From assembly GCA_031426555.1 (NCBI GenBank), contig JANPLN010000009.1, positions 1 to 64,000 of the forward strand: DNA of 64,000 nt, read 5' to 3'. This document shows positions 29,627 to 51,261 of the stretch, one piece after another. The notes beneath the pieces are model-generated. The model searched no databases. It worked only from the letters and a program-made list of their open reading frames with translations, and was not told the DNA's origin. Each line of letters starts with the position of its first letter. Position 1 is the first letter of the stretch. The DNA comes from Bdellovibrionales bacterium. GTDB lineage: Bacteria > Bdellovibrionota > Bdellovibrionia > Bdellovibrionales > JAGQZY01. Made by a program: the position numbers and the translations under genes.

Positions 29627-30724
29627 ATGGTATGCATGCAAAAGCTTATGAAGTTTTTTATTAGTCTATCTCTAGTTTTCCCTGGCCAACAATTGTTGGC
29701 TAAAGAAAAGCGAACTTTAGATTACAGAATCTACACAGCTTCTCTTTGGATCGATAACTTAAAGATGCCAATCACGAGTGGTAAAGCCGTTTGGATTGAC
29801 TCCATGTTTGTTATATTTAAAGCGAGTAAGGAATTAAGTTTGAATGATGTCCATTCAAATGTAATTCTTCAAATCAACGATTCCAAAGCGACCGGGACAC
29901 GAGCTGTGGTCGTGGATTACGATCTCTCTTCGGGTTGGATGTTGGCGGAAGTCAAAAAACAGGCTGTTTCAGCTCCACGACAAAAATTGGGCGATCAGCA
30001 AGTTGTGGATTTGCTGACGCAAAATGATTTGATCGATCATCGAGATAGAAAGCTTATTCTATCAGCCCTGGTTAAGTTTGACCAAAACCGCCACTCCCGT
30101 GGAATCGCCGGTGACAAAGATTTTTACGAAATGTTGGGACTACAAATTAAAGACTATGCGCAAAAAATGACCAATGCGATGGTTAAGAGTCAGCGTAAAA
30201 TTTTCTGGAAGAATAATATTTCGATGCCACTTCCGCTAGTGGACTCATGTTCAGTGGATTCAGATTTATTAATTAGAACAAAAAACCATGCTCAGCTCCG
30301 ATTAGAGCAGGCTTTTGCGTGTCATGTGCAAGGGTCACTCTCCTCTCGCGAGATCTCGTCAACCCTTAGGCCTGAGTATACAGTCCTGACAGGAGTACTT
30401 AAGACGGATGAGCCTTTTTTAAAGATACCATCTGTCGCGACGCAATTGGCGTTATTAGGCACACAAATGGATGCAGACACTGTTAGCGGAATGGCCTTGG
30501 GGCGTTGCATTTCCCATTGGATTGGCGAAAAGCAACTATACATGAAATCATGTGTTACTAAAAACGGAACCTTTAATGACTTATATAATGGCTATCATCT
30601 GATTGGCTTTTACCATAATCAAAAAATTATCTACAAATTTTTAAAGGCCAAAGGCTTTACGAAAGATAACCAAACGGAAATCGTTGAAAAAATGTTAAAT
30701 GCAACCCGGGGAAGCGTTCTGTGA
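29627..30724 (+). CDS. Secreted/periplasmic hypothetical protein (possible catalytically dead trypsin-like N-domain)
   Basis: Signal peptide (start may be 29636 or 29648). Overlaps the next gene by 4 nt. No His/Ser triad motifs. Confidence 0.7.
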   Translation: MVCMQKLMKFFISLSLVFPGQQLLAKEKRTLDYRIYTASLWIDNLKMPITSGKAVWIDSMFVIFKASKELSLNDVHSNVILQINDSKATGTRAVVVDYDLSSGWMLAEVKKQAVSAPRQKLGDQQVVDLLTQNDLIDHRDRKLILSALVKFDQNRHSRGIAGDKDFYEMLGLQIKDYAQKMTNAMVKSQRKIFWKNNISMPLPLVDSCSVDSDLLIRTKNHAQLRLEQAFACHVQGSLSSREISSTLRPEYTVLTGVLKTDEPFLKIPSVATQLALLGTQMDADTVSGMALGRCISHWIGEKQLYMKSCVTKNGTFNDLYNGYHLIGFYHNQKIIYKFLKAKGFTKDNQTEIVEKMLNATRGSVL

Positions 30725-31665
30725 CAAAAATAAGTGTATTTGTTGAGTCGAAAACGGGAGAAGTGCTGGGAGAAGTCTTTTCATTTAAAGATCGAATTTC
30801 CATTGGATCTGGTGAAGAATGCTCAATCTGCTTAAAAAATAATAAACTGGCCGAATTGGAACACGAAATTTATTTTTTGAACGGGGAGTGTTGGCTCCAG
30901 GTGGGGAAAGACGGTGCGCCGATTACCTCTTTAGGCAAACAGCATAGGTCTTTAAAAATCTCACAAAGTTCACAATTTCAATTTCGCGACATGGTGTTAA
31001 AAGTGATACTTGATTCCATTCCAGAATTTGAGAGTGAAGCCACAAAAATTGTAAACGAAACGATGCTTGATAATTCAGATAAAACGCGCGTTGTCAGCCA
31101 AAGTGAGCGGACCCTGGAAGTCGTTTCGTCGGCACCAGATCTAACTGATTTAGAGGCGACGAGAGTTGTTTCCAATCTTGAGCAAACAAAAATTCTTTCT
31201 GCCCAAGAAGCCACGCGCATATTGACGGTCGCGGAAAGCGTGGCGCCAGCTTTTGACGAAACTACTTTAACGAACACAAAAATACAGTTTAAAAAAAATA
31301 AGCAGAGCTATGAGATTCTGATCGCAAGAAGAAATATCTCCAGTCAGATCAACGATTTCTTCGACAGTCAGGATTTTAGTCGCGTAAGAGCGAACGTCCA
31401 GGATCTTTTAAATCAATTTCAAATAAAAGAACGAATATTTCCCATTTTAGGTGTCTTTTTTTTAGCTATTGCAGTTTTTATGATCGCCACGCGCGAAAAC
31501 CCAGTCGCAAGTACTGACATCCTAGCCAGCAACAAGCAAAAAAGCGACAGATTACCACTTTCAATAAAACCGACTCCCGCGCCAAATGGGACTGCCGGAT
31601 CCGAAGTGCCTTCGTCCCAGACAAAAGACGGGTATCTCAGCGAAATGTCCCGACTGTTTGAGTAA
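30721..31665 (+). CDS. Degenerate FHA-like domain membrane protein with repeated Thr motifs
   Basis: N-terminal FHA-like ISIGSGEECSICL (GR changed to GS, no SxxH). Repeats EATKIV/DKTRVV/EATRVV/EQTKIL/EATRIL. One TM near the C-terminus. Confidence 0.7.
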   Translation: MTKISVFVESKTGEVLGEVFSFKDRISIGSGEECSICLKNNKLAELEHEIYFLNGECWLQVGKDGAPITSLGKQHRSLKISQSSQFQFRDMVLKVILDSIPEFESEATKIVNETMLDNSDKTRVVSQSERTLEVVSSAPDLTDLEATRVVSNLEQTKILSAQEATRILTVAESVAPAFDETTLTNTKIQFKKNKQSYEILIARRNISSQINDFFDSQDFSRVRANVQDLLNQFQIKERIFPILGVFFLAIAVFMIATRENPVASTDILASNKQKSDRLPLSIKPTPAPNGTAGSEVPSSQTKDGYLSEMSRLFE

Positions 31666-31674
31666 GTCTAAGTA

Positions 31675-31702
31675 TAAAGATTTTTTCATCAAATTCCGAT
31701 CT
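31675..31702 (+). promoter_or_regulatory. Putative internal sigma28 promoter
   Basis: TAAA-N16-TCCGATCT in the 56-nt gap before the MotB-like gene. Same -10 octamer as the flagellin-1 promoter. Confidence 0.5.
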
Positions 31703-31721
31703 ACACATTGGAGAATTACAT

Positions 31722-33218
31722 ATGCCATTTGATAGAAAAAAAATTGGAAAAGAATCCCAAGATTCAATGTGGACATCGACATCCGACTTATTTTTAGGAT
31801 TGTCCGTTGTCTTCTTGCTCCTCTATGTTTCAGCAAGTCTGAAGCAAGGCACAGAGGGCTTTCAAAAACAGCAAGAGTACAAAGAGCTTACAAAAATAAA
31901 TCAAGATCTCAAAGAACAGATCAAAGTTTATGATTCTTTAAAGAAAAATTATCTTGAGACGCAGGCCTCCGAAGGCGAAAAAGAGACCTATGAAAAACTC
32001 ATGGGACAGTTGGATCTCCTTCAAGATGAATCACAAAAAGAAAAAAAAGATCTTATGAAACAAGCTAAGCAGCTTCAGGATAAAGAAGTTGCTTTGAATC
32101 AGTATCAACAGATTGTACGAAATATTATTAACTCGAGTATGCTTTCAAAATCACGAATCAAGCAACGTGATACGCTGATCGAGAAAAAAGAAGTCGTGAT
32201 CGATCAGAAAAATACTGAAATTGACTCTTTAGCCCAACAGATTGACGAAAAGAAGAAGGCGCTTGATGAAGGGCGTGCCTACGCAGAAAAATTGGAAAAT
32301 AATTTGAGTAGTAGTTTAAGCGATTTGCAAAAAGCTTACAAAAAGCAAAAAATGACGCAAACGAAGTTCTTAGCCCAGAAACAGAAAATACAATCCGAAT
32401 ACGAGCAAAGAATGGGTTCATTAAAAGAGGCGAATGCGCAAACAGAGGCTCAGCTCAACGCTCTAAGTAGCGATCTTCAGCAAACCAAGGGCCAACTCGG
32501 AAAAGCAAGTCAAGAGCTTGAACAGGCTGGACAAAATATCTCCGACCTCAAAGGGAAGTATGCTGGCGCTCTAGGGCAGGCACAGGAAATGTCAGGAAAA
32601 TTTGCGCAGGCCAATCAAAAAGTTTCTCAGCTCAGTGGTGATCTCGCAAAAGCACAGGAAAATCTCAACGCAAAGAGAAAGCTTGCCGAAGGTATTAAAG
32701 GAGCATTTGCAGCCAAAGGTATCAAAGCAGAAGTGGATCAAAAGAGCGGAGATGTTCTACTTTCCTTTGGAGAGGAATATTTTGATACGGGACGCTCTAT
32801 TTTAAAGCCCGGTATGAAAAAAGTGTTGGAACAGACGGTTCCCGAATATTCCAAGAGCTTATTTCAAAACAGATCCATCGCATCTAAAATATCGAACATT
32901 GAAATCATTGGTTTTGCATCGCCAACTTATAAAGGTAAGTATATAGATCCCACTAAGTTAAGCGGAGAAGATCGCGGAGCCGTTAATTACAATTTGGATT
33001 TAAGCTATCAACGCGCAAGATCTATTTTTGACCACGTGTACAGCAATATGACCTTTGAGCACAAAAAAGAAATGCTACCTCTCATTAAGGTCGCAGGACG
33101 TAGCTTTCTGGCAAATAAAGAGCGAAACATTGCAACTTCGGGCGCAGAAGATTTTTGTCTGAAAAATGATTGCTCAAAGCTACAAAAAGTTATCATTAAA
33201 TTTAATTTGAAAGACTAG
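31722..33218 (+). CDS. MotB/ZorB-like protein: TM, long coiled coil, OmpA-like PG-binding domain
   Basis: TM WTSTSDLFLGLSVVFLLL with the conserved-position Asp, ~300 aa heptad-rich region, then FDTGRSILK, IEIIGFAS, NLDLSYQRA. Confidence 0.8.
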   Translation: MPFDRKKIGKESQDSMWTSTSDLFLGLSVVFLLLYVSASLKQGTEGFQKQQEYKELTKINQDLKEQIKVYDSLKKNYLETQASEGEKETYEKLMGQLDLLQDESQKEKKDLMKQAKQLQDKEVALNQYQQIVRNIINSSMLSKSRIKQRDTLIEKKEVVIDQKNTEIDSLAQQIDEKKKALDEGRAYAEKLENNLSSSLSDLQKAYKKQKMTQTKFLAQKQKIQSEYEQRMGSLKEANAQTEAQLNALSSDLQQTKGQLGKASQELEQAGQNISDLKGKYAGALGQAQEMSGKFAQANQKVSQLSGDLAKAQENLNAKRKLAEGIKGAFAAKGIKAEVDQKSGDVLLSFGEEYFDTGRSILKPGMKKVLEQTVPEYSKSLFQNRSIASKISNIEIIGFASPTYKGKYIDPTKLSGEDRGAVNYNLDLSYQRARSIFDHVYSNMTFEHKKEMLPLIKVAGRSFLANKERNIATSGAEDFCLKNDCSKLQKVIIKFNLKD

Positions 33219-33227
33219 GAGCGTAAA

Positions 33228-34163
33228 ATGAGCGGTTTAGACCATGGTTTAAATGAAATGTTTAGTCAGTTTGTGACAGTTGCCAAGGCAGTGCATTTTC
33301 CAGCAATGCTATTGATGTTTGCTGCTGGCGCCTCTCTGCGTTGGTTGACTTACAAAATGGTGTACAAATACTACTATTTTGCGAGGGAGTTTGAGAACCG
33401 GGTCAGCCAATTTTTGGCCGAACAAAGTCCAAAAAAGACGACCCAATACTCATTTTATGTACTGTGTAAAAAGCTTTTGGAAAAAACGTTCTTTGAAATC
33501 ACCTCAGCTCGGGAAAAGAAAGAGAAGGGTGATTTTGATAGAATTGTTTTAGTGGATGACAGGCTTTTTTTAACAAAATGGGGAGCTTCATGGTTTGTTG
33601 TAAACAGTCTTAAGCAAATTCGTTTTTTACAATACGGAGCTAGTGACCCTAAATTAATGAACATCACAAAAACGCTACTAGGTAAAAATCCGGTATTCAC
33701 CAGACTTTTTGGTGTGATTCCGCTCGGTGGACTTAATGAGTTTTTAAATATGCTTCCAGGACTTTTTGTGATTGGCGGGATTTTCGGAACATTTTTGGGA
33801 GTTATGAAGGGTCTACCTGGCTTAAGTGCTATGGATTTAAGTGATCCGGCGACCACTAAAACTGTAATGGATTACTTTCTTGTTGAAGTATCGCTCTCCA
33901 TGGGAGCCTCGGTCACTGGTATTTTATTGAGCGTGATGATGACAATTGTTAACGTTTCGTTCAATCCTGAAAGACTGTACTCCGACATGACAGAAAGACT
34001 GGAAAACAATTTTGATTTGATTTGGAACTACGCAACGAACAACGAGGTTCCTTCGGACCTCAAATCTTTCGATGAGAACAGAAGTCCCGACGAAGTTCTT
34101 GCGGAGGCCAGTGTTATTCAGGAATTTAAAAAACATACGGGTGATTACGATAAAAGCGCTTAA
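33228..34163 (+). CDS. MotA/TolQ/ExbB (ZorA-like) ion channel subunit
   Basis: Three hydrophobic segments. LPGLFVIGGIFGTFLG and SMGASVTGILLS match the ExbB/TolQ/ZorA TM2-TM3 pattern. Confidence 0.75.
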   Translation: MSGLDHGLNEMFSQFVTVAKAVHFPAMLLMFAAGASLRWLTYKMVYKYYYFAREFENRVSQFLAEQSPKKTTQYSFYVLCKKLLEKTFFEITSAREKKEKGDFDRIVLVDDRLFLTKWGASWFVVNSLKQIRFLQYGASDPKLMNITKTLLGKNPVFTRLFGVIPLGGLNEFLNMLPGLFVIGGIFGTFLGVMKGLPGLSAMDLSDPATTKTVMDYFLVEVSLSMGASVTGILLSVMMTIVNVSFNPERLYSDMTERLENNFDLIWNYATNNEVPSDLKSFDENRSPDEVLAEASVIQEFKKHTGDYDKSA

Positions 34164-34180
34164 GCTAAGGAGCAATTACT

Positions 34181-36199
34181 TTGTTTTCTATTAAGATTAA
34201 GAGAAATAACAGCTTTGAGCTTTTCACATCGAAGGGTCCAGAGTTCATACTGGGGCGCGCCACGGATTGCAATATTGTAATCCAATCCGACGTTATTTCT
34301 CGTCATCATCTTAAAATCGTTGTGACTCCAGAAGAGGTTTTCATTCTTGATTTAAAATCAGCGAATGGTACCTACGTCGACGGACATCTCATCACTCCTC
34401 AACAACCCTATGTGGTCAGTGAGCTAAGTGATATCCGACTTGGAAACATGAAGGAAACCATTAAAATTTGTGATCCACGAGAAGAGCCTGAGAAGGTCGA
34501 TGTGCCTGCACCTAAAGAGGTATTTAACAAACCGTTGACTCCCAAGCCGCAGTCAACAGCTGTAAAAATCGCAATAGCTCCCCCAGAGGTTTCGCTGCAA
34601 GAAGTGAGTAAAAAAGCCGAAGCCATCTTGGAAAACGCTAAGAAAAAGGCTCGTGAAATTATTGCGCTGGCGGAACACGAAACTGATCAAAAATCTGCAA
34701 AAATGCTAGAAAATTCAGAAGCAATTATACGGGACGCAAAAGATCAGGCCGAGAAAATCATCATCAATGCTGAGGAGTCCACAAAGGTCATTATTAAAAA
34801 AGCAAAATTTGATGCCGAGACCATTGTTGATAAGGCAAATGTCCAATCCAAACTCATCGTAGATAAATCTTTAATGGAAGCTGATTTAGCTGTAGCTGAA
34901 GGACGACGTCGAGGCGAAAGCCTTGTAAAAAGTGAGCTACTACAAATAGAGAATGAGAAAATTAAGTTAAAAGAAATTTGGCTCGAAGAAGAAAAACGTT
35001 TGCGCGCTGACTTTAATAAATTCAAAGAAGAAGAAGGGGCTAAATTAAAGCAGCTTCATTTTGAAGAGCGCGAAAAAGTAAGAAAAGAGTTGGATGAAAA
35101 AAGAACTCTCTTCGCTAAGGAATTGCTTAAAAAGCAAGAAACTCTGCGGGTCGAAGAATCGGATTTGGTGAGTAGAAAGTATATCATCGAGAATGAAATA
35201 GAAACGATGCAAAATAAACACGAACAGTTAAAAAATGACTATGCACAGAAAAGTCTTGCTTTAAAAATTCAGTATGAAGAAGAAAAGGGTAAATCGGAGC
35301 TTACAGTTAATGCGTTAAAGAAAAAGTACGATGTCGAGATGGAGATCTACAAGAAAAGTGAACTCGAGCGGATGCAGTCCTACTTAAAGCAGCATCAGGG
35401 AACCCTCGATGAAAACCAAAAAATGCAAAATCTCAAGGCGAATTACTCTTTAAAGAAATCCATTGCTGCAGCCTTAGACCAAGGGCTCGGAGAGCATATC
35501 GACAAGGAACAAGTGAGTGTTCTCCTCGAGCGAGTGAGTAATAACATCGATCAAACGATTCACCAAATCGAAGAAGAAAAAAGAACGACGAGTGCTCTTT
35601 CTGAAAATTCGTCAGAAAAAACGGTACAGAATAGAAATTCAAAAACGGCAACGATTTTTGCTGTCGGACTTTGCGCAGCACTTATGGGCGTTTTTATGTT
35701 TTGGGATATCATCTATCAATCTCTCCGCCAGAGTGAGACCTATGCAAAGTTTATGTTTGATAAAATGCAGATCGAGAGTGTTTACGTGCCCATTCAAACC
35801 GCGGCATGGCGTAATTCTTACCGTGAGCGTGTGCTTTATTTAAAAGATTACGTGGAGTTTAAAACAAATTCGCTGTATTTGGATAAGTGGACCCAGCATC
35901 TTACAAACATCGAAAACGCCCAGTCTTTGCGACTTAGTGAAGATGAAATGGTTCAATTTTTAGCCCGTGAAATTAACCTCGTAAGTCAACTCTCGGCTTT
36001 GCAGAAGACCATAGATGCTCGTCAGCTCGAGCTAAGCCTCACAAAGCTGAAAGCAGCAGAAGATGAAGCGATGGCTGACTTCACTAAAACACTCAAATCC
36101 AAAGAGAATTTACAAAAAGTTTTAGATTGGGAAAAGCAGTTCGTGATGGAACATATGACCCGGCTTCAGCAACAGCGACTGCCAACAGGAAATAAATGA
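34181..36199 (+). CDS. FHA domain-coiled coil-TM protein
   Basis: Canonical FHA (LGRATDC..ISRHH..DLKSANGT), Pro-rich linker, A-x2-II-x2-A repeats, long coiled coil, one TM (~aa 490-510), C-terminal domain. TTG start with AAGGAG. Confidence 0.85.
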   Translation: MFSIKIKRNNSFELFTSKGPEFILGRATDCNIVIQSDVISRHHLKIVVTPEEVFILDLKSANGTYVDGHLITPQQPYVVSELSDIRLGNMKETIKICDPREEPEKVDVPAPKEVFNKPLTPKPQSTAVKIAIAPPEVSLQEVSKKAEAILENAKKKAREIIALAEHETDQKSAKMLENSEAIIRDAKDQAEKIIINAEESTKVIIKKAKFDAETIVDKANVQSKLIVDKSLMEADLAVAEGRRRGESLVKSELLQIENEKIKLKEIWLEEEKRLRADFNKFKEEEGAKLKQLHFEEREKVRKELDEKRTLFAKELLKKQETLRVEESDLVSRKYIIENEIETMQNKHEQLKNDYAQKSLALKIQYEEEKGKSELTVNALKKKYDVEMEIYKKSELERMQSYLKQHQGTLDENQKMQNLKANYSLKKSIAAALDQGLGEHIDKEQVSVLLERVSNNIDQTIHQIEEEKRTTSALSENSSEKTVQNRNSKTATIFAVGLCAALMGVFMFWDIIYQSLRQSETYAKFMFDKMQIESVYVPIQTAAWRNSYRERVLYLKDYVEFKTNSLYLDKWTQHLTNIENAQSLRLSEDEMVQFLAREINLVSQLSALQKTIDARQLELSLTKLKAAEDEAMADFTKTLKSKENLQKVLDWEKQFVMEHMTRLQQQRLPTGNK

Positions 36200-36951
36200 T
36201 TCTTATTAAATTAATTCTCATTTATTTTTGCCTTGCAGAAACCACGAGTAATCCATCGGCGCTCCGCGAGCGATTGAGCGTACCGTCCTTCTCCCAGCAA
36301 GATGCACGGAATGTCGGTTGGACTCCGAGAAACGCAGAGTTAAAAAATGTGTATATAAAACTCTATTTGGCCAACGAAGTTAACAAAGTCGCGCTCCGCA
36401 ATGCTTTTGAGTTTTACGAGAAAAATAGTTGCTCGTCATCTGCGAGATCCCAATCGTGCTGCCGCAATATGAGCTCTCAGACCTTAGCCATTTCGGATTT
36501 TACTCGTCCTTCTAACGAAAATCGTCTGCATCTGATTAATTTGCAAACTGGAACGTCTACCAATATGCTTGTGGCCCACGGCAGTGGTTCAGATCCCGAT
36601 CATGATCGCCGAGCGCAGACCTTCAGTAATCTCGCAAACTCAAATCAGACGCCTGCAGGATTCCATATCGCTCGCGGTCAGTATATGGGGAGCAATGGAT
36701 TGAGTTTGAATTTGCACGGCGTAGAACCGTCGCGGAACGGCAACTCCTATCGCCGTCGAATCGTAGTGCACGGAGCAAGTTATGTGCAAAGCGGAGGACG
36801 AAGCCACGGTTGCCTCGCAGTTGAACCAAAAAATATTCGCTCAGTGGTAGAAATGCTAAGTAACGATTCGCTTGTTTACAACTTTAACGGTGAGGCCGCG
36901 ATCAATGCGAATGCCTCAGAACTGTGTGCCGGAGCCACGGGACCTCAATAG
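36196..36951 (+). CDS. Murein L,D-transpeptidase catalytic-domain family (YkuD_2) protein
   Basis: DFTRPSNENRL, VAHGSGS, FSN, LNLHG, IVVHGASYV..GRSHGC. Confidence 0.88.
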   Translation: MILIKLILIYFCLAETTSNPSALRERLSVPSFSQQDARNVGWTPRNAELKNVYIKLYLANEVNKVALRNAFEFYEKNSCSSSARSQSCCRNMSSQTLAISDFTRPSNENRLHLINLQTGTSTNMLVAHGSGSDPDHDRRAQTFSNLANSNQTPAGFHIARGQYMGSNGLSLNLHGVEPSRNGNSYRRRIVVHGASYVQSGGRSHGCLAVEPKNIRSVVEMLSNDSLVYNFNGEAAINANASELCAGATGPQ

Positions 36952-37016: not shown

Positions 37017-37043
37017 TAAAGACTCATATTGAAACACCGATGA
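37017..37043 (+). promoter_or_regulatory. sigma28 promoter of flagellin
   Basis: TAAA-N15-ACCGATGA. Confidence 0.7.
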
Positions 37044-38231: not shown

Positions 38232-41045
38232 ATGAAACTATTTTCTTTGCTAAACCTTTGTCGAGTCTTGGAAGTCGCATTCGTAATGAGTACGAGTGTT
38301 TTCCTGTTTTTGGAACAAAGCCATGCTTCGGGTGAAACAGAAATCAATCATCTCAACGAAGTCACGCATCTCGAAATGCAGGACATAGCACCTGCAGATT
38401 ATGTAATTAAAAGAACCGGCGAAAAGCTGGAATTAAACGTGGATGCCCTGTCAGAAACTACAAAAAAGAAACTAACGAACTATTCTGATCGATTTATTAA
38501 AAAGATCGAAATACAGAAAAATACCTCATTGAGCAAAGACATCATTACATTTCATCTTGCCGACAAAGACCTCGAAGTTTTTGACTATTTGACGGATGCT
38601 CCATCTTCACTTTCTCTCGACTTCTTCGCAAAAGAAGAGGGAAAGGAAACAGATGCCGAATATGAAATGGCACAAAAATTACTAAAGAAAAATAATTCAA
38701 AAAATTCAGAAAAAAGTGCTTCGAAAAAATCCTTACAAAACGCCAGAAGAGATGTCGCTTCTTCGGAATTTATTCAAACAATAGGACATGTAACCATTGC
38801 CGGTGACACGGCAGATGTAAAAGACCACGCCAAGAGCGAAGAAGAGAAGAGTCAAAAAAAGAAAGAAGTGAACGCAGAGTTATTAAGAATAATTCGACTG
38901 GCCAAACAGGATGCCGGAGATATTTTAAAGTTCGACACGGACAAGTTGAATTTTAGTAAAGATTCTCTCATAGAGGGAAAAAATAAAATCTATATAAAAT
39001 ATCCAGTTTTGTTGAATGAGCACAAATATATTTCTGAAATACTGCAAAAAAATATACAGTACGAAGTAAAAGAAGCAAAGGATGCAGCGGGAAAAGATTT
39101 TTTGAAGATCCGTAAGTTCTACACCAATAGTGACTACAAAAACTTTTTAAAGTCGGAAAAAATATTTCAAAAAAGGCATCCAACCTCAAAATTCGAGGAA
39201 ATGATTACCTATATGGAAGCAGATGCCTACTTAGAGCTTTATAAATTGGAAAAAGAAAAGATTTTCTTTGACCGAGCACTTAAAATCTATGACTCCTTGC
39301 TCAGCAAATATCCGGACTCTCAGATTTCGGAACGAACGCTTTTGCTAGCCGCCTATCTGCGCTTAAAAGACCAACAGTATTTCGAAGCCTCTAGGAATCT
39401 CAAGCAGTACACTGTGAGATACGAAAAGTCGCCTCTCCGCGAAAACATAGAACTTATTCTAGCCCAGTCACTTGTTCGGCTGCATGAATACGAAGATGCC
39501 AAGAAAATATACAGCCAGTTGTTTAAGTCGGACAATCAAGAAATTCAAGCCTCCGCCTACTACGAGTATGGCAATATCTATTTTGAGGAAAAAGACTACC
39601 TCAGCGCCATTTCGGCCTACGAGACAGCGCTGAAGTTATATCCACACGAAGATAGAACCCATGAAAATATCTATTTTAACCTGGGGGAGACGCAGTTTCT
39701 GATTGGCGATTACAAGGCCAGTCTCAATCATTTAAGAAAATTTATTGCACAACATCCGCAGCATGATTACGCCTCCTATGCCTGGACTAGAATGGGTGAA
39801 ATATTTGAACTTTCCGAGGTGGATCCGAAAATATGGAGGGGCTACTACAATGAAAGCCACTTCCGTTTTCACAATCACCTTGGTGGAGCCATTGCAAAGA
39901 TAAATCTTTTGTACCACCAAGCAATTGGTGACAAAAAGAAATTTGACTACTTGCTGGAGCAAATCAAAAAGTTTGAAAATCAAATTCCGCTCAAGCAAGC
40001 TAACGAATACATCACTTTTAAAATTGCAGACGCCTATTACGAAGTGGGAAAATATCCGGAGTCCACACAAACACTGATCAATGAGTTTAAATCGGGTCGC
40101 ATGCCAGAACACACTGACAAACTACACAAGCGAATTGGACGTGGTCTTGCGGCGCAACTAAGATCAGCCGTCGAAGATAAAAAAGTGGTTGTAGGAATGA
40201 AAATTTTTGATGAGGTAGACCCTTTATGGTTTAAAAAATCCGAGCGCTTTGATTTCAGTTTCTATAAAGGTGAATTGTTTCGCGAAGCAAATTTATGCGC
40301 CAAAGCGCAAAAGCAGTACGAGGTTTATCTTGCAGATTTCGAAAAAGTGCCTAAAAAAGACGAGCTCGATAAAAGCCAAAGACTGCCATACCTTTCAGAA
40401 GTTTACTTAAAAAGTTCGATTTGTCTCAACCAACTCGATCAGCAATCAAAAGCTCAAGAAATGTTGTCAAAAGTGGATCCGCAAAATCTTGGGCAACAGG
40501 AGTTAGATGACTACTACCTGCTACAGGCAGATATCGCGACGAAAAATGTTGCACCAGATGAGGCGCTAAAGTTCTTGGCAAAAATTCAAAACCAAAATCT
40601 CGATACTTTGAACAAAAAGATAGATATTTTAAACGAAAAAGGGCTCAGCAAAGAGTCCATTGCCTCTATCGACTCGTATATGGACGGAAATTCGTTGAAT
40701 GAAAAAGATCGATTTAGTCTTTTACGAAAAAAGCTTTCGATCTTAGAAAATAGCAAAGATAAAAAAATGCCACAGTTTTTACAGAGCTTTTATGAAGAAT
40801 TCAAAAATAAGCCTTTTGATTTTGACAGAGAAAAGTATCTTCTTTTTGGAAATTTATTGGACCAAAAAAAAATGAAAGAAGCCGAGGAAGTGTTTTCTAA
40901 AATTAAAGCGGACAGCTACTGGGCTAAGTTAGCCGCCGAAAAAAAGACTTCGACGCAATGGGGTCAAAAATACCAAAAATTTGTAGATCGAATTCCTGCT
41001 ATGCAAAAACCTAAGGAGTCTGTTGATGATAAAAACCCAAAATGA
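38232..41045 (+). CDS. Large TPR-repeat protein (likely exported)
   Basis: Hydrophobic N-terminus and multiple TPRs (AYYEYGNIYF..AISAYETALKLYP; IYFNLGETQF). Confidence 0.85.
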   Translation: MKLFSLLNLCRVLEVAFVMSTSVFLFLEQSHASGETEINHLNEVTHLEMQDIAPADYVIKRTGEKLELNVDALSETTKKKLTNYSDRFIKKIEIQKNTSLSKDIITFHLADKDLEVFDYLTDAPSSLSLDFFAKEEGKETDAEYEMAQKLLKKNNSKNSEKSASKKSLQNARRDVASSEFIQTIGHVTIAGDTADVKDHAKSEEEKSQKKKEVNAELLRIIRLAKQDAGDILKFDTDKLNFSKDSLIEGKNKIYIKYPVLLNEHKYISEILQKNIQYEVKEAKDAAGKDFLKIRKFYTNSDYKNFLKSEKIFQKRHPTSKFEEMITYMEADAYLELYKLEKEKIFFDRALKIYDSLLSKYPDSQISERTLLLAAYLRLKDQQYFEASRNLKQYTVRYEKSPLRENIELILAQSLVRLHEYEDAKKIYSQLFKSDNQEIQASAYYEYGNIYFEEKDYLSAISAYETALKLYPHEDRTHENIYFNLGETQFLIGDYKASLNHLRKFIAQHPQHDYASYAWTRMGEIFELSEVDPKIWRGYYNESHFRFHNHLGGAIAKINLLYHQAIGDKKKFDYLLEQIKKFENQIPLKQANEYITFKIADAYYEVGKYPESTQTLINEFKSGRMPEHTDKLHKRIGRGLAAQLRSAVEDKKVVVGMKIFDEVDPLWFKKSERFDFSFYKGELFREANLCAKAQKQYEVYLADFEKVPKKDELDKSQRLPYLSEVYLKSSICLNQLDQQSKAQEMLSKVDPQNLGQQELDDYYLLQADIATKNVAPDEALKFLAKIQNQNLDTLNKKIDILNEKGLSKESIASIDSYMDGNSLNEKDRFSLLRKKLSILENSKDKKMPQFLQSFYEEFKNKPFDFDREKYLLFGNLLDQKKMKEAEEVFSKIKADSYWAKLAAEKKTSTQWGQKYQKFVDRIPAMQKPKESVDDKNPK

Positions 41046-41964
41046 GCAAATGAAGAATATCTTAGCATTGCTGGACAATGTTGCTCAAGCTCGGTCGACC
41101 ATTCTTCTTTGTGGCGAAACGGGTGTTGGTAAAGAGGAAATGGCTAAGTACATTCATCATATGAGCCCACGCAGAAAAAAGCCCTTTATCGCAGTGAACT
41201 GCGCGGCTTTTCCAAGCGAATTGCTCGAGAGCGAACTCTTTGGCTCGCAAAAGGGTGCTTTTACCGGGGCGCACCAAGATCGAGTGGGCCAAATAGAGGC
41301 AGCTCACGAGGGGACTTTTCTCCTCGACGAAATTAGCGAAATGCCATTTGAACTCCAAGGGAAATTATTGAGAGTCATTCAAGAAAAAGAGATCGTTCGT
41401 TTAGGCAGCAACGAACCCAAAAAGGTGGATGTTCGGTTTATTTGCACAACAAATCGAGACCTGAAAGAAATGGTCAAAGAAAACTCTTTTCGAAGTGATT
41501 TGTTTTATAGAATTAATGTAGTGCCTGTAAAAATCCCATCCCTAAGAGAGCGCTACGAAGATATGCAAACAATCACACAGTTCTTAATTGAGAAGTTTTG
41601 TTTAGAGAATGGTGTTCCGTGCAAGGATATCGACTCAACAGCAATTTCAAAAATTAAAAAATGGTCCTGGCCAGGGAATATTAGAGAATTGCAAAATGTA
41701 ATCGAACGAAGCGTTTTGGCTTGCTCTGGACCTCAGCTGACAGCCGAGAACGTGCTCATTGATGGGTTCCAAGAAGTTCGCAATTTACGTTTAGAGCCGG
41801 GAATGACCATTCAAGAAGCTGAGAAAATTTTAATCCTCAAAACTCTTCAACATACCGAGCGAAATAGAACGCAAGCAGCTAAGCTTCTTGGAATTAGTAT
41901 TCGCACACTGAGAAATAAATTAAACGAATACAAATTGGAGGGCTTCAGTGAATCAAATTTTTGA
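41026..41964 (+). CDS. sigma54-dependent activator (AAA+ and HTH, no N-terminal regulatory domain)
   Basis: GETGVGKE, ESELFG..GAFTGA, LLDEI, FRSDLFYR, WPGNIRELQN, Fis-type HTH. Confidence 0.93.
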   Translation: MIKTQNEQMKNILALLDNVAQARSTILLCGETGVGKEEMAKYIHHMSPRRKKPFIAVNCAAFPSELLESELFGSQKGAFTGAHQDRVGQIEAAHEGTFLLDEISEMPFELQGKLLRVIQEKEIVRLGSNEPKKVDVRFICTTNRDLKEMVKENSFRSDLFYRINVVPVKIPSLRERYEDMQTITQFLIEKFCLENGVPCKDIDSTAISKIKKWSWPGNIRELQNVIERSVLACSGPQLTAENVLIDGFQEVRNLRLEPGMTIQEAEKILILKTLQHTERNRTQAAKLLGISIRTLRNKLNEYKLEGFSESNF

Positions 41965-42313
41965 TAAAACCCTAAGAGCTCTTGCGACATCGAATAAAAT
42001 TCGCGAAGTAAAGCAGAGCGTACTTTCAGCGAACGTCGCCAACGCAGAAACACCCGGTTACCATGCTCAAAAAGTGGATTTTGAGTCGGAGCTTAAGCGA
42101 GCATTGAATATCAACGAAGGATCCATCGAGTCGGTAAAAGCCGACATTTACGATAATCCTGAAGTCGATGTTTCCAACGATGGCAACACCGTCGATTTGG
42201 AAAAAGAGCTTTCGAGTATGGTCGAGAACAACATCATGTATCGAGCGGCCAATCAGCTGATTAACAAAAAACTCGCATCGTTAAAGTATGTAGCTTCGGA
42301 CGGAGGTAGATAA
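41948..42313 (+). CDS. flgB: Flagellar basal-body rod protein FlgB
   Basis: ANVANAETPGY, DGNTVDLEKE. Confidence 0.93.
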   Translation: MNQIFDKTLRALATSNKIREVKQSVLSANVANAETPGYHAQKVDFESELKRALNINEGSIESVKADIYDNPEVDVSNDGNTVDLEKELSSMVENNIMYRAANQLINKKLASLKYVASDGGR

Positions 42314-42750
42314 TGGATTTTGGAACAGGGTTCAGAATCAGTAGTAGTGGTATGAATGCTCAGCGCATTCGCATGAACACGATTTCGAGCAACATTGCCA
42401 ATATCAACACCCTCAATACGCCAGAGGGTGGCCCTTACAGACGAAAGGAAGCTGTTCTACAGGCTCTCCCCGAGGCCAAGTCTTTCAGTGAGATGATGCT
42501 AAAGGATCCAAATCAATCCATGAGCCGGGTGCAAGTAACTGACATCCACGTAGACACCGGTGCCCCACTGATGAAATACGAGCCAGACCACCCCAATGCG
42601 GATGAAAGTGGAAACGTAGCCTACCCAAATATTAATTTAATGGAAGAAATGGCTAATATGATTCAAGCAACGCGCTCCTATGAGGCTAACGTCTCGGCTC
42701 TGAACGCGACCAAAGACATGGCCATGTCAGCATTAAATATTGGAGAGTAA
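42313..42750 (+). CDS. flgC: Flagellar basal-body rod protein FlgC
   Basis: SNIANINT, GGPYRRK, YEPDHPNA, EMANMIQATRSYEAN. Confidence 0.95.
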   Translation: MDFGTGFRISSSGMNAQRIRMNTISSNIANINTLNTPEGGPYRRKEAVLQALPEAKSFSEMMLKDPNQSMSRVQVTDIHVDTGAPLMKYEPDHPNADESGNVAYPNINLMEEMANMIQATRSYEANVSALNATKDMAMSALNIGE

Positions 42751-42802
42751 TTTATAGTTTTAAATTTGCGACTTTGAGTTAAAATAAAAGGAAGGATTTG
42801 CC

Positions 42803-43126
42803 ATGGACGGTTTATCGATCAAAAATTCTAATCTCAGCGGCGGCATCGGAAAAATATCCAATGCTCTGGGCCCTCTTAAGCCCAACGCAGGAGCCAACGA
42901 GGCCGGCGAATCTTTTGCGGACACTTTAAAAAATGCGGTTGGAAAAGTGAACGAATTGCAAGTGCAAGCTGACGTAAAAATGCAACAACTAGCCACCGGA
43001 GAAACCACCGACATCGCAGATGTTAAAATTTCCGCTGAGAAAGCGGATATCGCTCTTCGCTTAATGACTTCTGTTCGCAACAAAATGATCGATGCTTACC
43101 ACGAAATTATGAAAATGCAGGTTTAA
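42803..43126 (+). CDS. fliE: Flagellar hook-basal body protein FliE
   Basis: SFADTL, VRNKMIDAYHEIMKMQV. Confidence 0.95.
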   Translation: MDGLSIKNSNLSGGIGKISNALGPLKPNAGANEAGESFADTLKNAVGKVNELQVQADVKMQQLATGETTDIADVKISAEKADIALRLMTSVRNKMIDAYHEIMKMQV

Positions 43127-43138
43127 TAGGGAGCCCTT

Positions 43139-44785
43139 GTGAAGAATTTATTTAATGTCTTATTTTTGCAACTAAGAGATTTTTTTAAGAGCCTGACGCC
43201 TCTTAAAAGAATGTCTGTTATAGCCAGTGCCGCCGTGGCTTGCGCTGCCCTCGTGACCATTTCGATCATGGGTGGGAAAAAAGACTTTGTGGTTTTGCTC
43301 AAAGATGTGGGGCCAGACCAATCGGTGTCGGTCATTAGCATCCTCGAAAACAAAAAAATTCCGTATCAACTCATCGACAGCGGAAAAACCATCATGATAC
43401 CAAACAGCTTTTTGCCATCGACACAGATGCTGATCATGTCCGAGGTGGGTTCAGAAAAATTGAGTCAAGGTTTGGAGCTCTTTGATAAACAAAACTTTGG
43501 AACAACGACCTACGAGCAAAAGATAAAATACCAACGCGCCATCCAAGGTGAACTCACTCGAGCTATTAACACCATTGATTCGGTAAGTAGATCAAAGATT
43601 ATTTTGGCGATCCCTGAGAAAAAGACATTTATGTCTGAGAATGACACACCTCCCACAGCTTCGGTAATTATCGAACTTCATCACGGAAAAATTCTCAGTG
43701 AGGAACAAGTTCGCGGCATTACTTACCTGGTTGCAAGTTCCGTGGAAAACTTAAAATCCGAGAATGTGTCGGTTGTGGATTCTCGCGGAAAAGTTCTTTC
43801 GAAGAAAGGCGATTCGTCCATGGCGGATTCCGCCGAGATGATGGATTCTCGACGTAAAATCGAAAACTATTTTCAAGAGCGCATCGAAGGCATTTTGGCC
43901 AAGGTCGTTGGCGAAGGAAAAGTCATTGCGCGCGTGAGTGCCGATTTAAATCTGAAGCAAACTTCGAAAGTGGAAGAGATCATCGATCCTGATAAAGTCG
44001 CAATTAAATCAACTCAGTCGGATCAAGAGACCATGGCTGGGAATCGCTCGAATCCGACAGGTGTTCCTGGGGCCAGAGCCAACCTGCCTGGGGCCAACGA
44101 GGCTGGAAACGTTGTTTTTAATCAAGACGTCAACAAAGAGCACAAGAATGTAACCTACGAAGTTCCAAAAACCACAGTGAATGTTGTGGAAGCTGCGGGC
44201 GGAATCAATCGCATCAGTGTGGCAGTGATGGTTGATGGGATGATGGTTGATGTTAAAGAAGGCACGAAGACCGTAAAAAAATGGCAACCAAGAAGCCCGG
44301 AAGAAGTTGCTCGGCTTGAAAATATAGTTAAGAATGCGATTGGCTTTGATGATAAGCGTGGAGATTCAGTTAAGATTGAATCCTTTGAATTTGCCAAAGT
44401 ATCGATGGAAGACGCGGATGGTATTTCGCGCGAACTCTACAGACAAAAAATGATCCGCTTTATCTTGAGCTGGGTATTAGCTGCGCTCGGCCTCCTCCTC
44501 GTGTACTTATTTGTTATCCGTCCTTTCAGCTCTTGGGTCACGGACAGCTTTCAGGAGTCCATCGAAGATATGTTGCCCAAAACCATCGAAGAACTGGAAG
44601 AGTTGCAATCCATTGATAACCGACTCCCTGGAATGTCGAACCTTGTTCCGGTTTTAGAATCGCCAATTGATCCGGAAAAAGCAGAAAGCGAAATTTTGAA
44701 AGATCGAATATTGACCTTGATTCAAGATGACACCGAAAAAGCCTCTGGCGCTCTGAGTCTGTGGCTTGTAAGGAGAGATATCTAA
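43139..44785 (+). CDS. fliF: Flagellar MS-ring protein FliF
   Basis: GLELFD, YQRAIQGELTRAI, LVASSVENL, NAIGFDDKRGD, two TMs. Confidence 0.95.
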   Translation: MKNLFNVLFLQLRDFFKSLTPLKRMSVIASAAVACAALVTISIMGGKKDFVVLLKDVGPDQSVSVISILENKKIPYQLIDSGKTIMIPNSFLPSTQMLIMSEVGSEKLSQGLELFDKQNFGTTTYEQKIKYQRAIQGELTRAINTIDSVSRSKIILAIPEKKTFMSENDTPPTASVIIELHHGKILSEEQVRGITYLVASSVENLKSENVSVVDSRGKVLSKKGDSSMADSAEMMDSRRKIENYFQERIEGILAKVVGEGKVIARVSADLNLKQTSKVEEIIDPDKVAIKSTQSDQETMAGNRSNPTGVPGARANLPGANEAGNVVFNQDVNKEHKNVTYEVPKTTVNVVEAAGGINRISVAVMVDGMMVDVKEGTKTVKKWQPRSPEEVARLENIVKNAIGFDDKRGDSVKIESFEFAKVSMEDADGISRELYRQKMIRFILSWVLAALGLLLVYLFVIRPFSSWVTDSFQESIEDMLPKTIEELEELQSIDNRLPGMSNLVPVLESPIDPEKAESEILKDRILTLIQDDTEKASGALSLWLVRRDI

Positions 44786-45828
44786 TGTCGGCAAATAAAT
44801 TAAAAAAAGTTGAAAGCATCGATTTTCGCAAACTCAAGGGCTTTGAAAAAGCCGCCATTCTGGTAAATTATCTTGGACCAGATGCCGCTAAATTATTTTT
44901 TAAAAACATGGACGACGCTGATTTAAAAAAGATCCTCTCTCTCATGAGTAAATACCGCGTTGTACCCATCGAAATAACAAAAAAAGTTCTTGAAGAGTTT
45001 TATGAGCTCGTGAGTGAATCGGAAGACTACATCTTTTCGGAAAAAGTAGGATCCCGTGAAATTATCACTGAAGCCTTGGGCGAAGAAAAAGCACGGCATA
45101 TCCTTGGTCACATGGACTATGCCGTCCGACAAACCCGCAGCCTCGAAAGCTTGGAGATGGTCGATGCAAAGACACTGGCCAACTTTTTAATCAGCGAGCA
45201 CCCACAGACCATCGCCGTTATTTTAGCGCATTTAGAAATTGAAAAGCGCGGTGATGTTCTCAAGCGGCTTCCCGACGGACTTCAAGGTGAAGTTGTTTTA
45301 CGTTTGGCGAACTTGGAGCATGTGTCTCCAGAGCTCTTGGCCGAAGTGGACAAAGTTCTCAAAGATGAGCTCGCCAACGTTGGAACGGTGGATAACGCCC
45401 AACTCGGTGGTGTTCAGGTTGTAGCCGAGATGCTGAACATGATGGATAAGAATACCGAGAAAACTATTCTTGGTGTTATTGAAGAGCGCGATAAAGAAAT
45501 GGCTGATGAAATTCGCAAATTGATGTTTGTCTTTGAAGATATTGGCAAAATCGACAACAAGGGAATTCAGCTTCTTCTTAAAGAAGTTCCAAATGATAAA
45601 CTTCTGTTGGCTCTTAAGACTGCTAACGAAGATATTAAAGCAAAAGTATTTGCCAATATTTCTAAACGTGCGGCTGAAATTCTCAGTGAAGATCTCAATT
45701 CACTGGGTCCGGTGAAAGTGGCGGATGTTGAAGCGGCGCAGATGGAAATCGTAAATGTAGCTCGTCGATTGGAATCTGAAGGAAAAATTGCAATAGCTAG
45801 AGGTGGTTCGGAAGATGTCTTCGTTTAA
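44785..45828 (+). CDS. fliG: Flagellar motor switch protein FliG
   Basis: KAAIL, EHPQTIAVIL, GGVQVVAEML, MFVFED. Confidence 0.96.
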   Translation: MSANKLKKVESIDFRKLKGFEKAAILVNYLGPDAAKLFFKNMDDADLKKILSLMSKYRVVPIEITKKVLEEFYELVSESEDYIFSEKVGSREIITEALGEEKARHILGHMDYAVRQTRSLESLEMVDAKTLANFLISEHPQTIAVILAHLEIEKRGDVLKRLPDGLQGEVVLRLANLEHVSPELLAEVDKVLKDELANVGTVDNAQLGGVQVVAEMLNMMDKNTEKTILGVIEERDKEMADEIRKLMFVFEDIGKIDNKGIQLLLKEVPNDKLLLALKTANEDIKAKVFANISKRAAEILSEDLNSLGPVKVADVEAAQMEIVNVARRLESEGKIAIARGGSEDVFV

Positions 45829-46555
45829 AATTGCGACCCCCACTAGAATTGATACTCATGTTCCTGAGAAGCTGGAAAATGCCGACTCACCACAGAGTCG
45901 TGCATTTTTTGGGAATACGAATGATGCACCGAAAGACTTCTTTGTTTTAAACCCGGAAATTTCGCACTTTATTGGATTAACAGCGGCTCGAACCAAGGAA
46001 GAAAAACGTCGATTTGATGCAGAAGTTTTAATGTACGTGCAAAAAATTAAAGACAATGCTTTTCAGGAAGCCTACGAACAAGGACTGCAAAAGGGAATTG
46101 AAGAGTCGAAAAAAGAGGCTTTTAATCAAGCAAAACAAGAGATCGGTATGCGTTTGCGTGTCTTTACCGAAATTTGCGAAAAAATTAATCAAATGACAAA
46201 GTTAGTCTTTGAGCAAAACGAAAAAGACATAGTTGATCTGTGTTACTTGATGGCCGAAAAAGTTATTCAGAGAACTGTGCAAAGAGAGCCAGGAATGGTT
46301 TTTAATGTTTTTCAGCAGGTCTTAAAAACTCAGGCTGTGACGAATATCCAAATTTCCGAAGAGGATTTTAACTATTTCGAAAAAAACAAATCTGAAATCG
46401 GTTTAGACATTGATTTATCCCAGGTGAGCGTAGAAGTGAATCGCGATCTTTTGCCAGGCGATGTACTTTTTTCGAACGACCTTGGAATTCTTGATGGAAC
46501 ACTGCAATCACGACTCGAAATGTTACGACAGATTGTAACAGAGGTCGAAAGCTAA
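45815..46555 (+). CDS. fliH: Flagellar assembly protein FliH
   Basis: Lies between fliG and fliI. AYEQGLQKG repeat, C-terminal LPGDV..GILDG. Confidence 0.85.
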   Translation: MSSFKIATPTRIDTHVPEKLENADSPQSRAFFGNTNDAPKDFFVLNPEISHFIGLTAARTKEEKRRFDAEVLMYVQKIKDNAFQEAYEQGLQKGIEESKKEAFNQAKQEIGMRLRVFTEICEKINQMTKLVFEQNEKDIVDLCYLMAEKVIQRTVQREPGMVFNVFQQVLKTQAVTNIQISEEDFNYFEKNKSEIGLDIDLSQVSVEVNRDLLPGDVLFSNDLGILDGTLQSRLEMLRQIVTEVES

Positions 46556-47889
46556 TGTTTCTTAATTTACGAAAGCTACATCATCAAATTGAGGATGCGG
46601 ATCTTTTTAAAAAAAAAGGCCGAGTGACAGATGTTTCACAGCAAATTGTTCAGGGCTATTTACCAAACGCTCAAATCGGATCACTTTGCCAAATCGACGC
46701 GGGTTCTAGCGCCGAACCTTGTCTGGCAGAAGTGGTGGGTTTGAAAAATGGCAAGGTTGTTCTTATTCCTTACAATAAAATATCGGGTGTGAGCGTGGGT
46801 AACCAAATCGAACTGCGCAGGCAATCCAACGATTGCCTTGTGGGCCCAGAGCTCTTAGGTCGCGTAATCGATGGTATGGGGCAACCCATTGATCAATTGG
46901 GTGAACTGCGCTGTCGTTACCATAGACCGCTCACAAAAAATTCCACAAATCCGCTGGCAAGACGCCCTATCGATCAATCTTTGGATTTGGGAGTGAAAGC
47001 TGTCAACGCGTTCAACACGATTGGCCGAGGTCAGCGTGTATCCATTATGGCAGGCTCTGGCGTTGGAAAATCTGTCCTTATGGGAATGATGGCCCGTTCC
47101 ACCGAAGCGGATGTCATCGTTATTGCCATGATTGGCGAGCGCGGCCGAGAAGTGAAAGAGTTTATTCAAGATATCCTAGGGATTGAAGGGCAAAAGAAAG
47201 CGGTCATCGTTGCGGTGACGAGCGATCAAAGCCCGCTCCTGAGAATGCGTGGAGCTCAGCTTGCCACAACAATTTCCGAATACTTTAGTGAGCAAGGGCA
47301 ACAAGTGCTGTTGATTATGGATTCTCTCACTCGCTTTGCAATGGCGCAAAGGGAAGTGTCTTTATTATCCGGAGAACCTCCAGCAATGAAGGGATACACC
47401 GCAAGTTTGTATCCCACGCTTTCAAAATTGCTCGAAAGAGCTGGAAATTTTGAATCAGGCGGAAGTATCACCGGAATTTACACAGTGCTTGTTGAAGGTG
47501 ACGATATGGATGATCCCGTTGCCGATACGGTACGGTCCATCGTCGATGGTCATATCGTTTTAACGCGAAAATTAGCGCAACAAGGTCACTTTCCGTCTGT
47601 CGATATTTTACAAAGTTTAAGTCGAGTAATGGATAAAGTCGTCACTCCGGATCATCTCGCGGCGGCGCGTAAGCTAAAACGAAAACTCGCTATCTACCGT
47701 GAAGCCGAAGATTTAATTAATGTGGGCGCTTATAAAAAAGGTATCAATCAAGAGATTGATGAAGCGGTTTCTTGTTACTCCGAGCTGAATCGATTTCTTC
47801 GTCAAGATTTAAATCAACCTGCGAACTACATGGAAACTATCTCGGAAATGCTGTCCATTGCCATGCGCTATAGTGGAGATATGAAATGA
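46555..47889 (+). CDS. fliI: Flagellar export ATPase FliI
   Basis: AGSGVGKS, GERGREV, MDSLTRFAMAQRE, DGHIVL. Confidence 0.96.
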   Translation: MFLNLRKLHHQIEDADLFKKKGRVTDVSQQIVQGYLPNAQIGSLCQIDAGSSAEPCLAEVVGLKNGKVVLIPYNKISGVSVGNQIELRRQSNDCLVGPELLGRVIDGMGQPIDQLGELRCRYHRPLTKNSTNPLARRPIDQSLDLGVKAVNAFNTIGRGQRVSIMAGSGVGKSVLMGMMARSTEADVIVIAMIGERGREVKEFIQDILGIEGQKKAVIVAVTSDQSPLLRMRGAQLATTISEYFSEQGQQVLLIMDSLTRFAMAQREVSLLSGEPPAMKGYTASLYPTLSKLLERAGNFESGGSITGIYTVLVEGDDMDDPVADTVRSIVDGHIVLTRKLAQQGHFPSVDILQSLSRVMDKVVTPDHLAAARKLKRKLAIYREAEDLINVGAYKKGINQEIDEAVSCYSELNRFLRQDLNQPANYMETISEMLSIAMRYSGDMK

Positions 47890-48344
47890 AGAAGCACCAC
47901 TTTCGCATGGAATCGTATTTAAAAATTAAAGAATTTGAAGAAAAACTTTCTTGGACCGAAGTACTTTCTCAGATGAATCGTGTCACCGTCATCGTACAAA
48001 AAATTACTCAATTAAAAAACCAACAAAAAACAATCCGAAAAAATATTTCCATGATCGGGCAAAATCAAGGTCCACAGATTTACGAACTATCCCTCGCCGG
48101 GGAGTCCATTGAGGGTACAAAAGTAAGAATAGAAAGCCTTCTTTTGGAGCAAAGAAATGAAGAAAAAATCTTGGAACGCCTGCGTTTGAAGCATTTGGAG
48201 TCAAAAAAAGATTTAAAAACAATCGAAAAGCTAAAGGAAAATGATCTGAGAAATTTTAAAATTGATCGAGATAAGAAGGATTTAAAAATAACCTCCGAAA
48301 TTGCTTTGCAAATGTATAATCGAGAGAAGGCCGAAAATGAATAA
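47886..48344 (+). CDS. fliJ: Flagellar export protein FliJ
   Basis: Follows fliI. Coiled coil with FRMESYL N-terminus and IEKLKE. Confidence 0.75.
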   Translation: MKKHHFRMESYLKIKEFEEKLSWTEVLSQMNRVTVIVQKITQLKNQQKTIRKNISMIGQNQGPQIYELSLAGESIEGTKVRIESLLLEQRNEEKILERLRLKHLESKKDLKTIEKLKENDLRNFKIDRDKKDLKITSEIALQMYNREKAENE

Positions 48345-49050
48345 TTATCAGAAGCACTTTCAAAAAATAAAAAAACAAAAAAAAATGAGTCTTGGCTACC
48401 AATCTGGAAAGATAAAAAAGGAAAGTCCGTATCTCCAATTTTTGGGTCTCGTGGCTCTTCTGGCGTTTTGTCTGACGTTGTACGGGATCTTGTATCCGGA
48501 GAATGTGGAAAAAATGTCGCAAGTTCGTCTGAGCCTTTTCTCGAAAAGTCTTGCCTCTGACGCGGAAGAAAAGTCCCCATCCAAAGAGGTAGCTGTGGAA
48601 AAATCTGCCCCTTCAGAAGCTGACAAGGTAGCAGCGGAAAACAAAAAGTCGAAGGCTGCAGTTGAAAAGAACGCCAGTCATGTTGAACAGTTACTTGAAA
48701 AAGAAAAAGAATTAGTTGAGCGCGAGAAGAGAGTTAAAGAAATGGAAGAGAAATTGCAACAGGTACAAGTAGAGATGGAAAGTCGGATGGCGCAACTCGA
48801 CCAAACACGTCGAGACATAGCGAGTCGGCTTGAATCGCGAGTGGTTGAAGAAGAAGAGAACATCGACAAGTTGGTAGGAGTTTACTCGAATATGAAACCA
48901 CAGAGCGCAGCGATGGTACTTTCGAAACTTGATGAAGAGTTGGCCATCGCCATTTTGAAGAAAATGAAGAAACAAGATGCTGGGAGTATATTAAATTTTA
49001 TAGATACGCAGAAAGCAAAAGTACTCTCCGAAAAATATTCAGGTTACTAA
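48337..49050 (+). CDS. MotE/FlbB-like protein (TM, coiled coil, MgtE_N-like)
   Basis: TM, coiled coil, KLVGVYSNMKPQSAA..ILKKMK motif. Typical position after fliJ. Confidence 0.8.
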   Translation: MNNYQKHFQKIKKQKKMSLGYQSGKIKKESPYLQFLGLVALLAFCLTLYGILYPENVEKMSQVRLSLFSKSLASDAEEKSPSKEVAVEKSAPSEADKVAAENKKSKAAVEKNASHVEQLLEKEKELVEREKRVKEMEEKLQQVQVEMESRMAQLDQTRRDIASRLESRVVEEEENIDKLVGVYSNMKPQSAAMVLSKLDEELAIAILKKMKKQDAGSILNFIDTQKAKVLSEKYSGY

Positions 49051-49066
49051 GGAAAAGGGGCGATAA

Positions 49067-50320: not shown

Positions 50321-50329
50321 AGGTAAACT

Positions 50330-51238: not shown

Positions 51239-51261
51239 AGTTTAAATAAGAGGGGGATTTC

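Follow-up and report, generated by a model that had tools for sequence, protein, structure and literature searches.

Judging from gene order across related genomes, the conserved unit at this locus is a three-gene operon of predatory bacteria, B-A-C (g3 to g5), and the adjoining genes g1, g2, and g6 are local passengers. By comparison of residues and models, the product of the trio is likely an A5B2 motor that runs on protons and belongs to the ZorAB lineage. The window, i.e., the whole stretch of 64,000 nucleotides analysed from a Bdellovibrionales bacterium, holds six co-oriented ORFs with a flagellin on either side and with successive inter-gene gaps of -4, 56, 9, 17, and -4 nt.

29627..30724 (+): g1, orphan limited to its own genus, probably exported; outside the conserved core
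30721..31665 (+): g2, rapidly evolving TM protein with a degenerate FHA and five [DE]xT[RK][VI] repeats; genus-restricted, possibly a local accessory
31675..31700 (+): predicted sigma28 (FliA)-like promoter site in the gap upstream of gene B (consensus from PMC3627812)
31722..33218 (+): g3, B subunit, 498 aa; TM segment with Asp22, helical periplasmic stalk of about 290 aa, and C-terminal ZorB-type wall-binding domain (Y423, N424, L427, R431); orthologue of Bd1167
33228..34163 (+): g4, A subunit, 311 aa; three TM segments, P177/T188/S228; orthologue of Bd1168
34181..36199 (+): g5, C protein, 672 aa; FHA-rod-TM-periplasmic domain; orthologue of Bd1169
36196..36951 (+): g6, YkuD_2 L,D-transpeptidase-family gene; passenger at the locus

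Gene order and distribution

The first-pass annotation had described six tightly packed genes between two flagellins, which is confirmed at these coordinates, and had read them as a single module, which is not borne out. Gene order was scored in 98 loci around chosen matches, a set that leaves out the window, two Zorya loci, and loci L071 to L100. In all 94 loci that could be assessed, B immediately precedes A, and C follows A in 70 of the 80 loci outside a paralogous clade (B-A without C, 10 of 80); these counts are descriptive, because the loci are related and hand-picked. g3 to g5 alone travel together: g1 plus g2 occur in 4 of the 98 other loci, all from their own genus, and g6 in 2, one copy being broken, so that the module is largely refuted by synteny. 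At four loci where C is missing, an ankyrin-repeat gene lies just upstream of B (L137:3586-5673, L139:3718-5742, L160:10259-11905, and L051:12505-14193), and three of these four genes have, by eye, an FHA-like N terminus.

The paralogous clade comprises 14 loci (L145 and L147 to L159; e.g., L154:8716-14058, minus strand) from other Bdellovibrionota families, in 13 of which a stand-alone cNMP-binding gene follows A (12 co-oriented, one inverted). The stalks of its B proteins span 399 to 1519 residues, and B' reaches 1780 aa, with a periplasmic coiled coil of about 1500 residues.

Searches detected A in 41 of 61 relatives (with two weak matches to true Zorya loci among them), in 160 of 251 order-level genomes (three weak; about one third lack A), and in 127 of 301 phylum-level genomes, mostly as a single copy; a search of the whole library returned 367 representatives at E ≤ 0.001. 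Within the genus, A and B are conserved at the level of RNase R. In a quick tree of A, the well-sampled genera (genus labels g1, g4, g14, and g35, distinct from the genes of the window) stay together and families are split. Patchy order-level presence and split families are traits resembling those of accessory genes. The tree points to inheritance within genera combined with older transfer or paralogue sorting. Plasmids and phages gave no match to the trio.

Regarding the passengers, g1 had been called secreted, which holds as far as a signal peptide recognised by eye; its sequence matches nothing, as family searches gave no match and an atlas search no usable one, and a trypsin-like protease assignment was rejected. 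It is present in 5 of 121 genomes, all from its own genus; the g1-g2 pair lies ahead of B in five genomes of this genus, with a contig break intervening in G003. For g2, annotated as a degenerate-FHA TM protein, the single TM segment and a degenerate N terminus resembling FHA stand, but g2 itself has no domain match, and canonical phosphothreonine-binding FHA residues are absent. An orthologue matches Yop-YscD_cpl at E 3e-5, under the cut-off. The g2 repeats (window 31036-31224, plus strand) number 4 to 5 in each of four orthologues despite 22 to 81% identity, and they are possible candidate phosphothreonine sites for FHA binding. The YkuD_2 call on g6 is sound (Pfam E 1e-35). g6 has a GC content of 0.478, compared with about 0.40, and three paralogues in G000. 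In G003 it is a pseudogene with an early stop and internal deletions (L070:12850-13560), and it is missing from the locus in G002, G004, and G005, the best G004 match lying on another contig; no YkuD genes were found among 140 flanking ORFs of 36 loci. The suggested link of the motor to cross-link remodelling is thus not supported, the L,D-transpeptidase being a higher-GC passenger that is broken or missing in these relatives. YkuD_2 may be linked to 1-3 cross-linking enzymes; a preprint on such enzymes does not name the family.

Subunit features and kinship with ZorAB

Among the six ORFs, Pfam families were found in g5 (FHA, E 5e-17, as originally called) and g6 only. The MotB/ZorB-like call on g3 is upheld by PADLOC ZorB1 (E 4e-31) and the single TM segment bearing Asp22, and the MotA/ExbB-like call on g4 by its three TM segments and the NCBIfam ZorA models (E 4e-9). 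The Zorya membrane core and wall-binding domain are hence found in A and B, though the ZorA matches stay under the NCBIfam cut-offs. A itself has no PF01618 match, and G000 carries nine separate PF01618 proteins; A homologues carry the precomputed family PF28082.

ZorAB uses ZorB D26, ZorA T147/S184 and P136, and the wall-binding residues Y151/N152/L155/R159 (PMC11946911). In A, T188 and S228 align to ZorA T147/S184 and occur in 95 of 95 proteins, and P177, the equivalent of ZorA Pro136, occurs in 94 of 95. An assignment of A Pro207 to ZorA Pro163, at least 90% conserved in close relatives, was not reproduced in a wider alignment. D22 of B is invariant in 141 of 141 aligned rows. The TM-Asp pattern was detected in 107 of 116 B proteins and in 2 more by inspection, the remaining 7 being cut by locus or contig ends; the wall-binding motif, with residues spaced as in ZorB, is present in 114 of 116. 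The residue alignments thus contain both elements of an ion motor, the TM aspartate of B and the Thr/Ser filter of A, which, together with the co-conservation of C, supports the earlier proposal of an ion-motor pair with an FHA-TM partner. At E ≤ 0.001, the B model (pLDDT 75) has two structure matches, both ZorB, and the A model (pLDDT 78) has none, its top match being ZorA (E 1.6e-3), followed by TolQ and ExbB.

The B stalk is helical and proline-free over about 290 residues, which corresponds to about 42 nm if straight; in E. coli, the membrane-to-wall distance is about 9 nm. Stalk lengths are 245 to 456 aa (n = 94) and 399 to 1519 aa (n = 13). C consists of a canonical FHA domain (residues 23 to 88), a proline-free helical rod (141 to 480), a TM segment (489 to 507), and a conserved periplasmic domain that gave no family or structure match, including TonB_C, and no usable match in an atlas search. 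The FHA residues in g5 are G25, R26, S40, H43, and N62, and this GR...S..H...NG pattern, whose residues have roles in phosphothreonine binding, is found in 68 of 85 C proteins; 182 to 1082 residues separate FHA and TM. Phospho-regulation may therefore act through the FHA domain of C; no Ser/Thr kinase was linked to the trio. A predicted complex of C(480-672) and two copies of B(1-170) scored 0.12 (mark, 0.32), a value that favours neither contact nor its absence. Mutual information between paired A/B/C alignments had low power (effective n, 51).

With ZorAB of Zorya types I and II, the trio shares a three-TM A, a single-TM B, and the Asp/Thr/Ser ion path (PMC11946911, PMC11890865), as well as the ZorB-type wall-binding domain and its residues, and ZorAB gives the best sequence and fold matches. 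It differs in several respects. (i) Zorya needs the ZorA tail, and its ZorB has no linker, on which the sensing model depends (PMC11946911), whereas A is tail-less, ending about 45 residues past its last long helix (281 to 447 aa, n = 95), and B has a stalk of 245 to 1519 aa instead of a direct fusion of TM and wall domain. (ii) B precedes A, and the third gene is FHA-rod-TM or cNMP binding. (iii) No linked effectors (ZorC/D or ZorE) were found among the flanks, and ZorC was found in none of four carriers (G000, G002, G079, and G347) and in both true-Zorya controls; a DUF3348 search for Zorya effectors ran without a positive control. (iv) The trio lies in a housekeeping context rather than in a defence island and is expressed in the attack phase. 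On these sequence grounds, the trio would work like a ZorAB-type motor, and its tail, linker, and linked effectors set it apart from Zorya proper. The statement that the locus does not match Zorya under-called the kinship, both subunits being closest to ZorAB. At L066 and L067, in G059 and G032, lie true Zorya type I-like loci encoding ZorA, ZorB, and ZorC along with a gene of 1000 aa; neither genome yielded the trio in these searches.

A stator is defined by a four-TM A with a torque interface, and a recent stator phylogeny left ZorAB out as too remote (PMC12505986). The trio resembles MotAB/PomAB in the 5:2 family and in a B that combines a TM Asp with a linker and an OmpA-like anchor to the wall, but its A has three TM segments and the helical linker of its B is much longer. 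Nor does its presence track the flagellum: it can be missing from flagellated genomes and is present in G024 and G027 (99 to 100% complete), which lack a FliG and flagellin match but still have FliA as well as the trio (C is split in G024). The separation from flagellar stators drawn on first reading is thereby sustained, as is that from Tol/Ton and Agl-Glt. Like TolQRA, ExbBD-TonB, and AglRQS-GltG, the trio combines a motor with a third, single-pass inner-membrane protein, and the fold of A is like that of TolQ/ExbB; however, the stalk of B carries a wall-binding domain of the ZorB and not the ExbD/TolR type, and the long portion of C is cytoplasmic, C lacking a TonB_C/TolA-type domain. In G024 and G027, near-complete Bdellovibrionales genomes, the flagellum has apparently been lost and the attack-phase sigma factor retained.

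Predicted promoter, genomic context, and Bdellovibrio bacteriovorus orthologues

The FliA consensus is TTAAG-N16-CCGATA (PMC3627812). Its -10 box, CCGA[TA], occurs upstream of B in 66 of 103 loci; dinucleotide-shuffled sequences gave 14.8, the reverse strand gave 14, and among other ORFs the box preceded 141 of 953. At the -35 position, the aligned columns upstream of B show TTAAG, and the strict two-box pattern is found in 26 of 105 cases (0.9 expected), including the 56-nt gap of the window. Given this FliA-like site, B-A-C probably has its own promoter here. A scan for sigma70 promoters and terminators stayed at chance level.

A canonical sigma28 site precedes the second flagellin (window 37017-37040, plus strand) and is conserved in the genus; the first flagellin has a similar one upstream, on the minus strand. 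Beyond the locus, window 38232-53000 encodes a TPR protein and a sigma54 activator and includes the beginning of a cluster of flagellar basal-body genes, with a FliG domain at 45478-45795; this flagellar linkage is limited to the genus. The 140 ORFs that flank 36 loci mostly encode housekeeping or uncharacterised proteins, with one PD-(D/E)XK nuclease and, at E ≤ 1e-8, no restriction, toxin-antitoxin, integrase, or transposase family.

The orthologous trio proteins are identical to CAE79080-82, i.e., Bd1167-Bd1168-Bd1169 (Q6MNS1, Q6MNS0, and Q6MNR9; Q6MNS1 is listed as Bd1167), annotated as a "microtubule binding protein", a hypothetical protein, and a "large Ala/Glu-rich" FHA protein, respectively. 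An identification with Bd3178-3181 proved wrong. Family and gene order are as in the window, but no g1, g2, or YkuD_2 gene adjoins; UniRef gives Bd1168 a MotA/TolQ/ExbB domain. A 2010 Ccrp paper may discuss Bd1167.

The three genes share one mapped attack-phase start, scored "no" for FliA, and RPKM values of about 932/35, 1354/23, and 527/14, columns that we read as attack/growth phase, are 26- to 55-fold higher in the attack phase (PMC3627812). On prey entry they fall to 0.6 to 0.8, in a study terming Bd1167 crescentin-like (PMC2797640). The proteins dip at 3 to 4 h and recover together, and in these data their profiles co-vary (r, 0.84 to 0.94), which may be common to attack-phase proteins (PMC12546842). 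A tie to the motile phase, proposed from the window, agrees with an orthologue operon whose expression is higher in the attack phase. An essential predatory role is contradicted by published Tn-seq, in which insertions were neutral under four prey conditions (W 1.5 to 2.0, like most neighbours), so that the genes are neither essential nor needed for predation in this host-independent library, where they were matched by name and gene order (PMC6561027). Full-text searches of openly available papers returned no paper treating the trio as a motor, with passages of PMC11890865, PMC12505986, PMC8938487, and PMC12034629 among the text covered; passages of a 2026 review (PMC13689555) do not mention 1167 or Zor, and the supplements of PMC11025332 gave no match.

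Proposed function and competing explanations

We tentatively propose, with a probability of roughly 45%, that in the free-swimming phase the trio acts as an envelope sensor-motor, driven by protons, tethered to the wall, and signalling via the FHA rod. By homology, five A subunits would surround two B helices, with protons passing via B Asp22 and A Thr188/Ser228, and the C-terminal domain of B, with its conserved residues, would bind the peptidoglycan wall. Since about 42 nm is too long for an upright strut, the stalk would extend laterally in the periplasm or double back, and the motor might be gated by strain in the stalk. C, which is co-conserved with A and B, may bind the motor and supply a cytoplasmic rod in trans in place of the ZorA tail, its FHA domain recruiting phosphothreonine proteins. 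Attack-phase cells would use the motor to sense or resist envelope deformation; published data show the orthologue to be dispensable in laboratory predation.

The main rival, unlikely in our judgement, is an attack-phase anti-phage system, i.e., a Zorya-like sensor in which C replaces the tail and the effector is encoded elsewhere. Kinship with ZorA and ZorB, patchy presence, and mixing across families in the tree would suit defence, as would expression while the cell is outside its prey; neutral Tn-seq without phage also fits. A Glu85 and Glu90, kept in 76 of 81 and 79 of 81 proteins, may match the ZorA Ca2+ glutamates in a putative alignment. However, A has no tail of the kind that Zorya needs, the 245 to 1519 residues in B conflict with a sensing model that requires no linker, ZorC was detected in the controls and not in the carriers, and the trio has housekeeping neighbours and is fixed within genera.

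It is less probable still that the trio forms a purely mechanical periplasmic scaffold or winch, in which rotation tensions the B coiled coil between membrane and wall and so stiffens small attack-phase cells, with C merely positioning it. Stalks of up to 1519 aa, attack-phase RPKM of about 500 to 1350 (PMC3627812), and the earlier crescentin-like label of Bd1167 (PMC2797640) are compatible with such a role, but each of the two main clades has a signalling domain, FHA or cNMP, in its third gene, and curvature is set by Bd1075.

We give little credence to the idea that the trio is an accessory motor for gliding or surface motility, in which C would act as GltG does. The FHA-TM topology of C presumably recalls GltG, the trio is kept in the flagellum-less G024 and G027, and gliding defects could escape Tn-seq done in liquid and biofilm; against this, the B end is of the ZorB and not the ExbD/TolR type, the periplasmic domain of C matches neither TonB_C nor any other family, and G000 has its nine separate PF01618 proteins. 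A six-gene machine coupling the motor to L,D-transpeptidation is hardly credible: g6 overlaps the g5 stop codon and may be co-transcribed with g5 in G000 and G001, and g1-g2 precede B throughout five genomes, but g6 is intact in 1 of 98 other loci and g1 and g2 are confined to one genus.

Within the sensor-motor reading, the significance of the trio lies in its relation to Zorya. Phage sensing is the sole known role of ZorAB, and its tail-less relative, spread across Bdellovibrionota mostly in single copy, offers a handle on the origin of the Zorya sensor. Bd1167, long filed as a crescentin-like cytoskeletal protein, would be re-read as a motor subunit, and because it belongs to a predator amenable to genetics, for which mutant libraries exist, its function is directly testable. 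A bolder version, which we regard as doubtful, is that the trio is a non-defence, developmentally regulated branch of ZorAB, whose proton-driven rotor winds or is strained by a wall-anchored coiled coil of 40 to 200 nm and whose signalling tail has become a swappable separate subunit (FHA rod or cNMP reader). If true, 5:2 machines would gain a new class, the envelope winch-sensor, which may show what the Zorya sensor derived from or was domesticated into.
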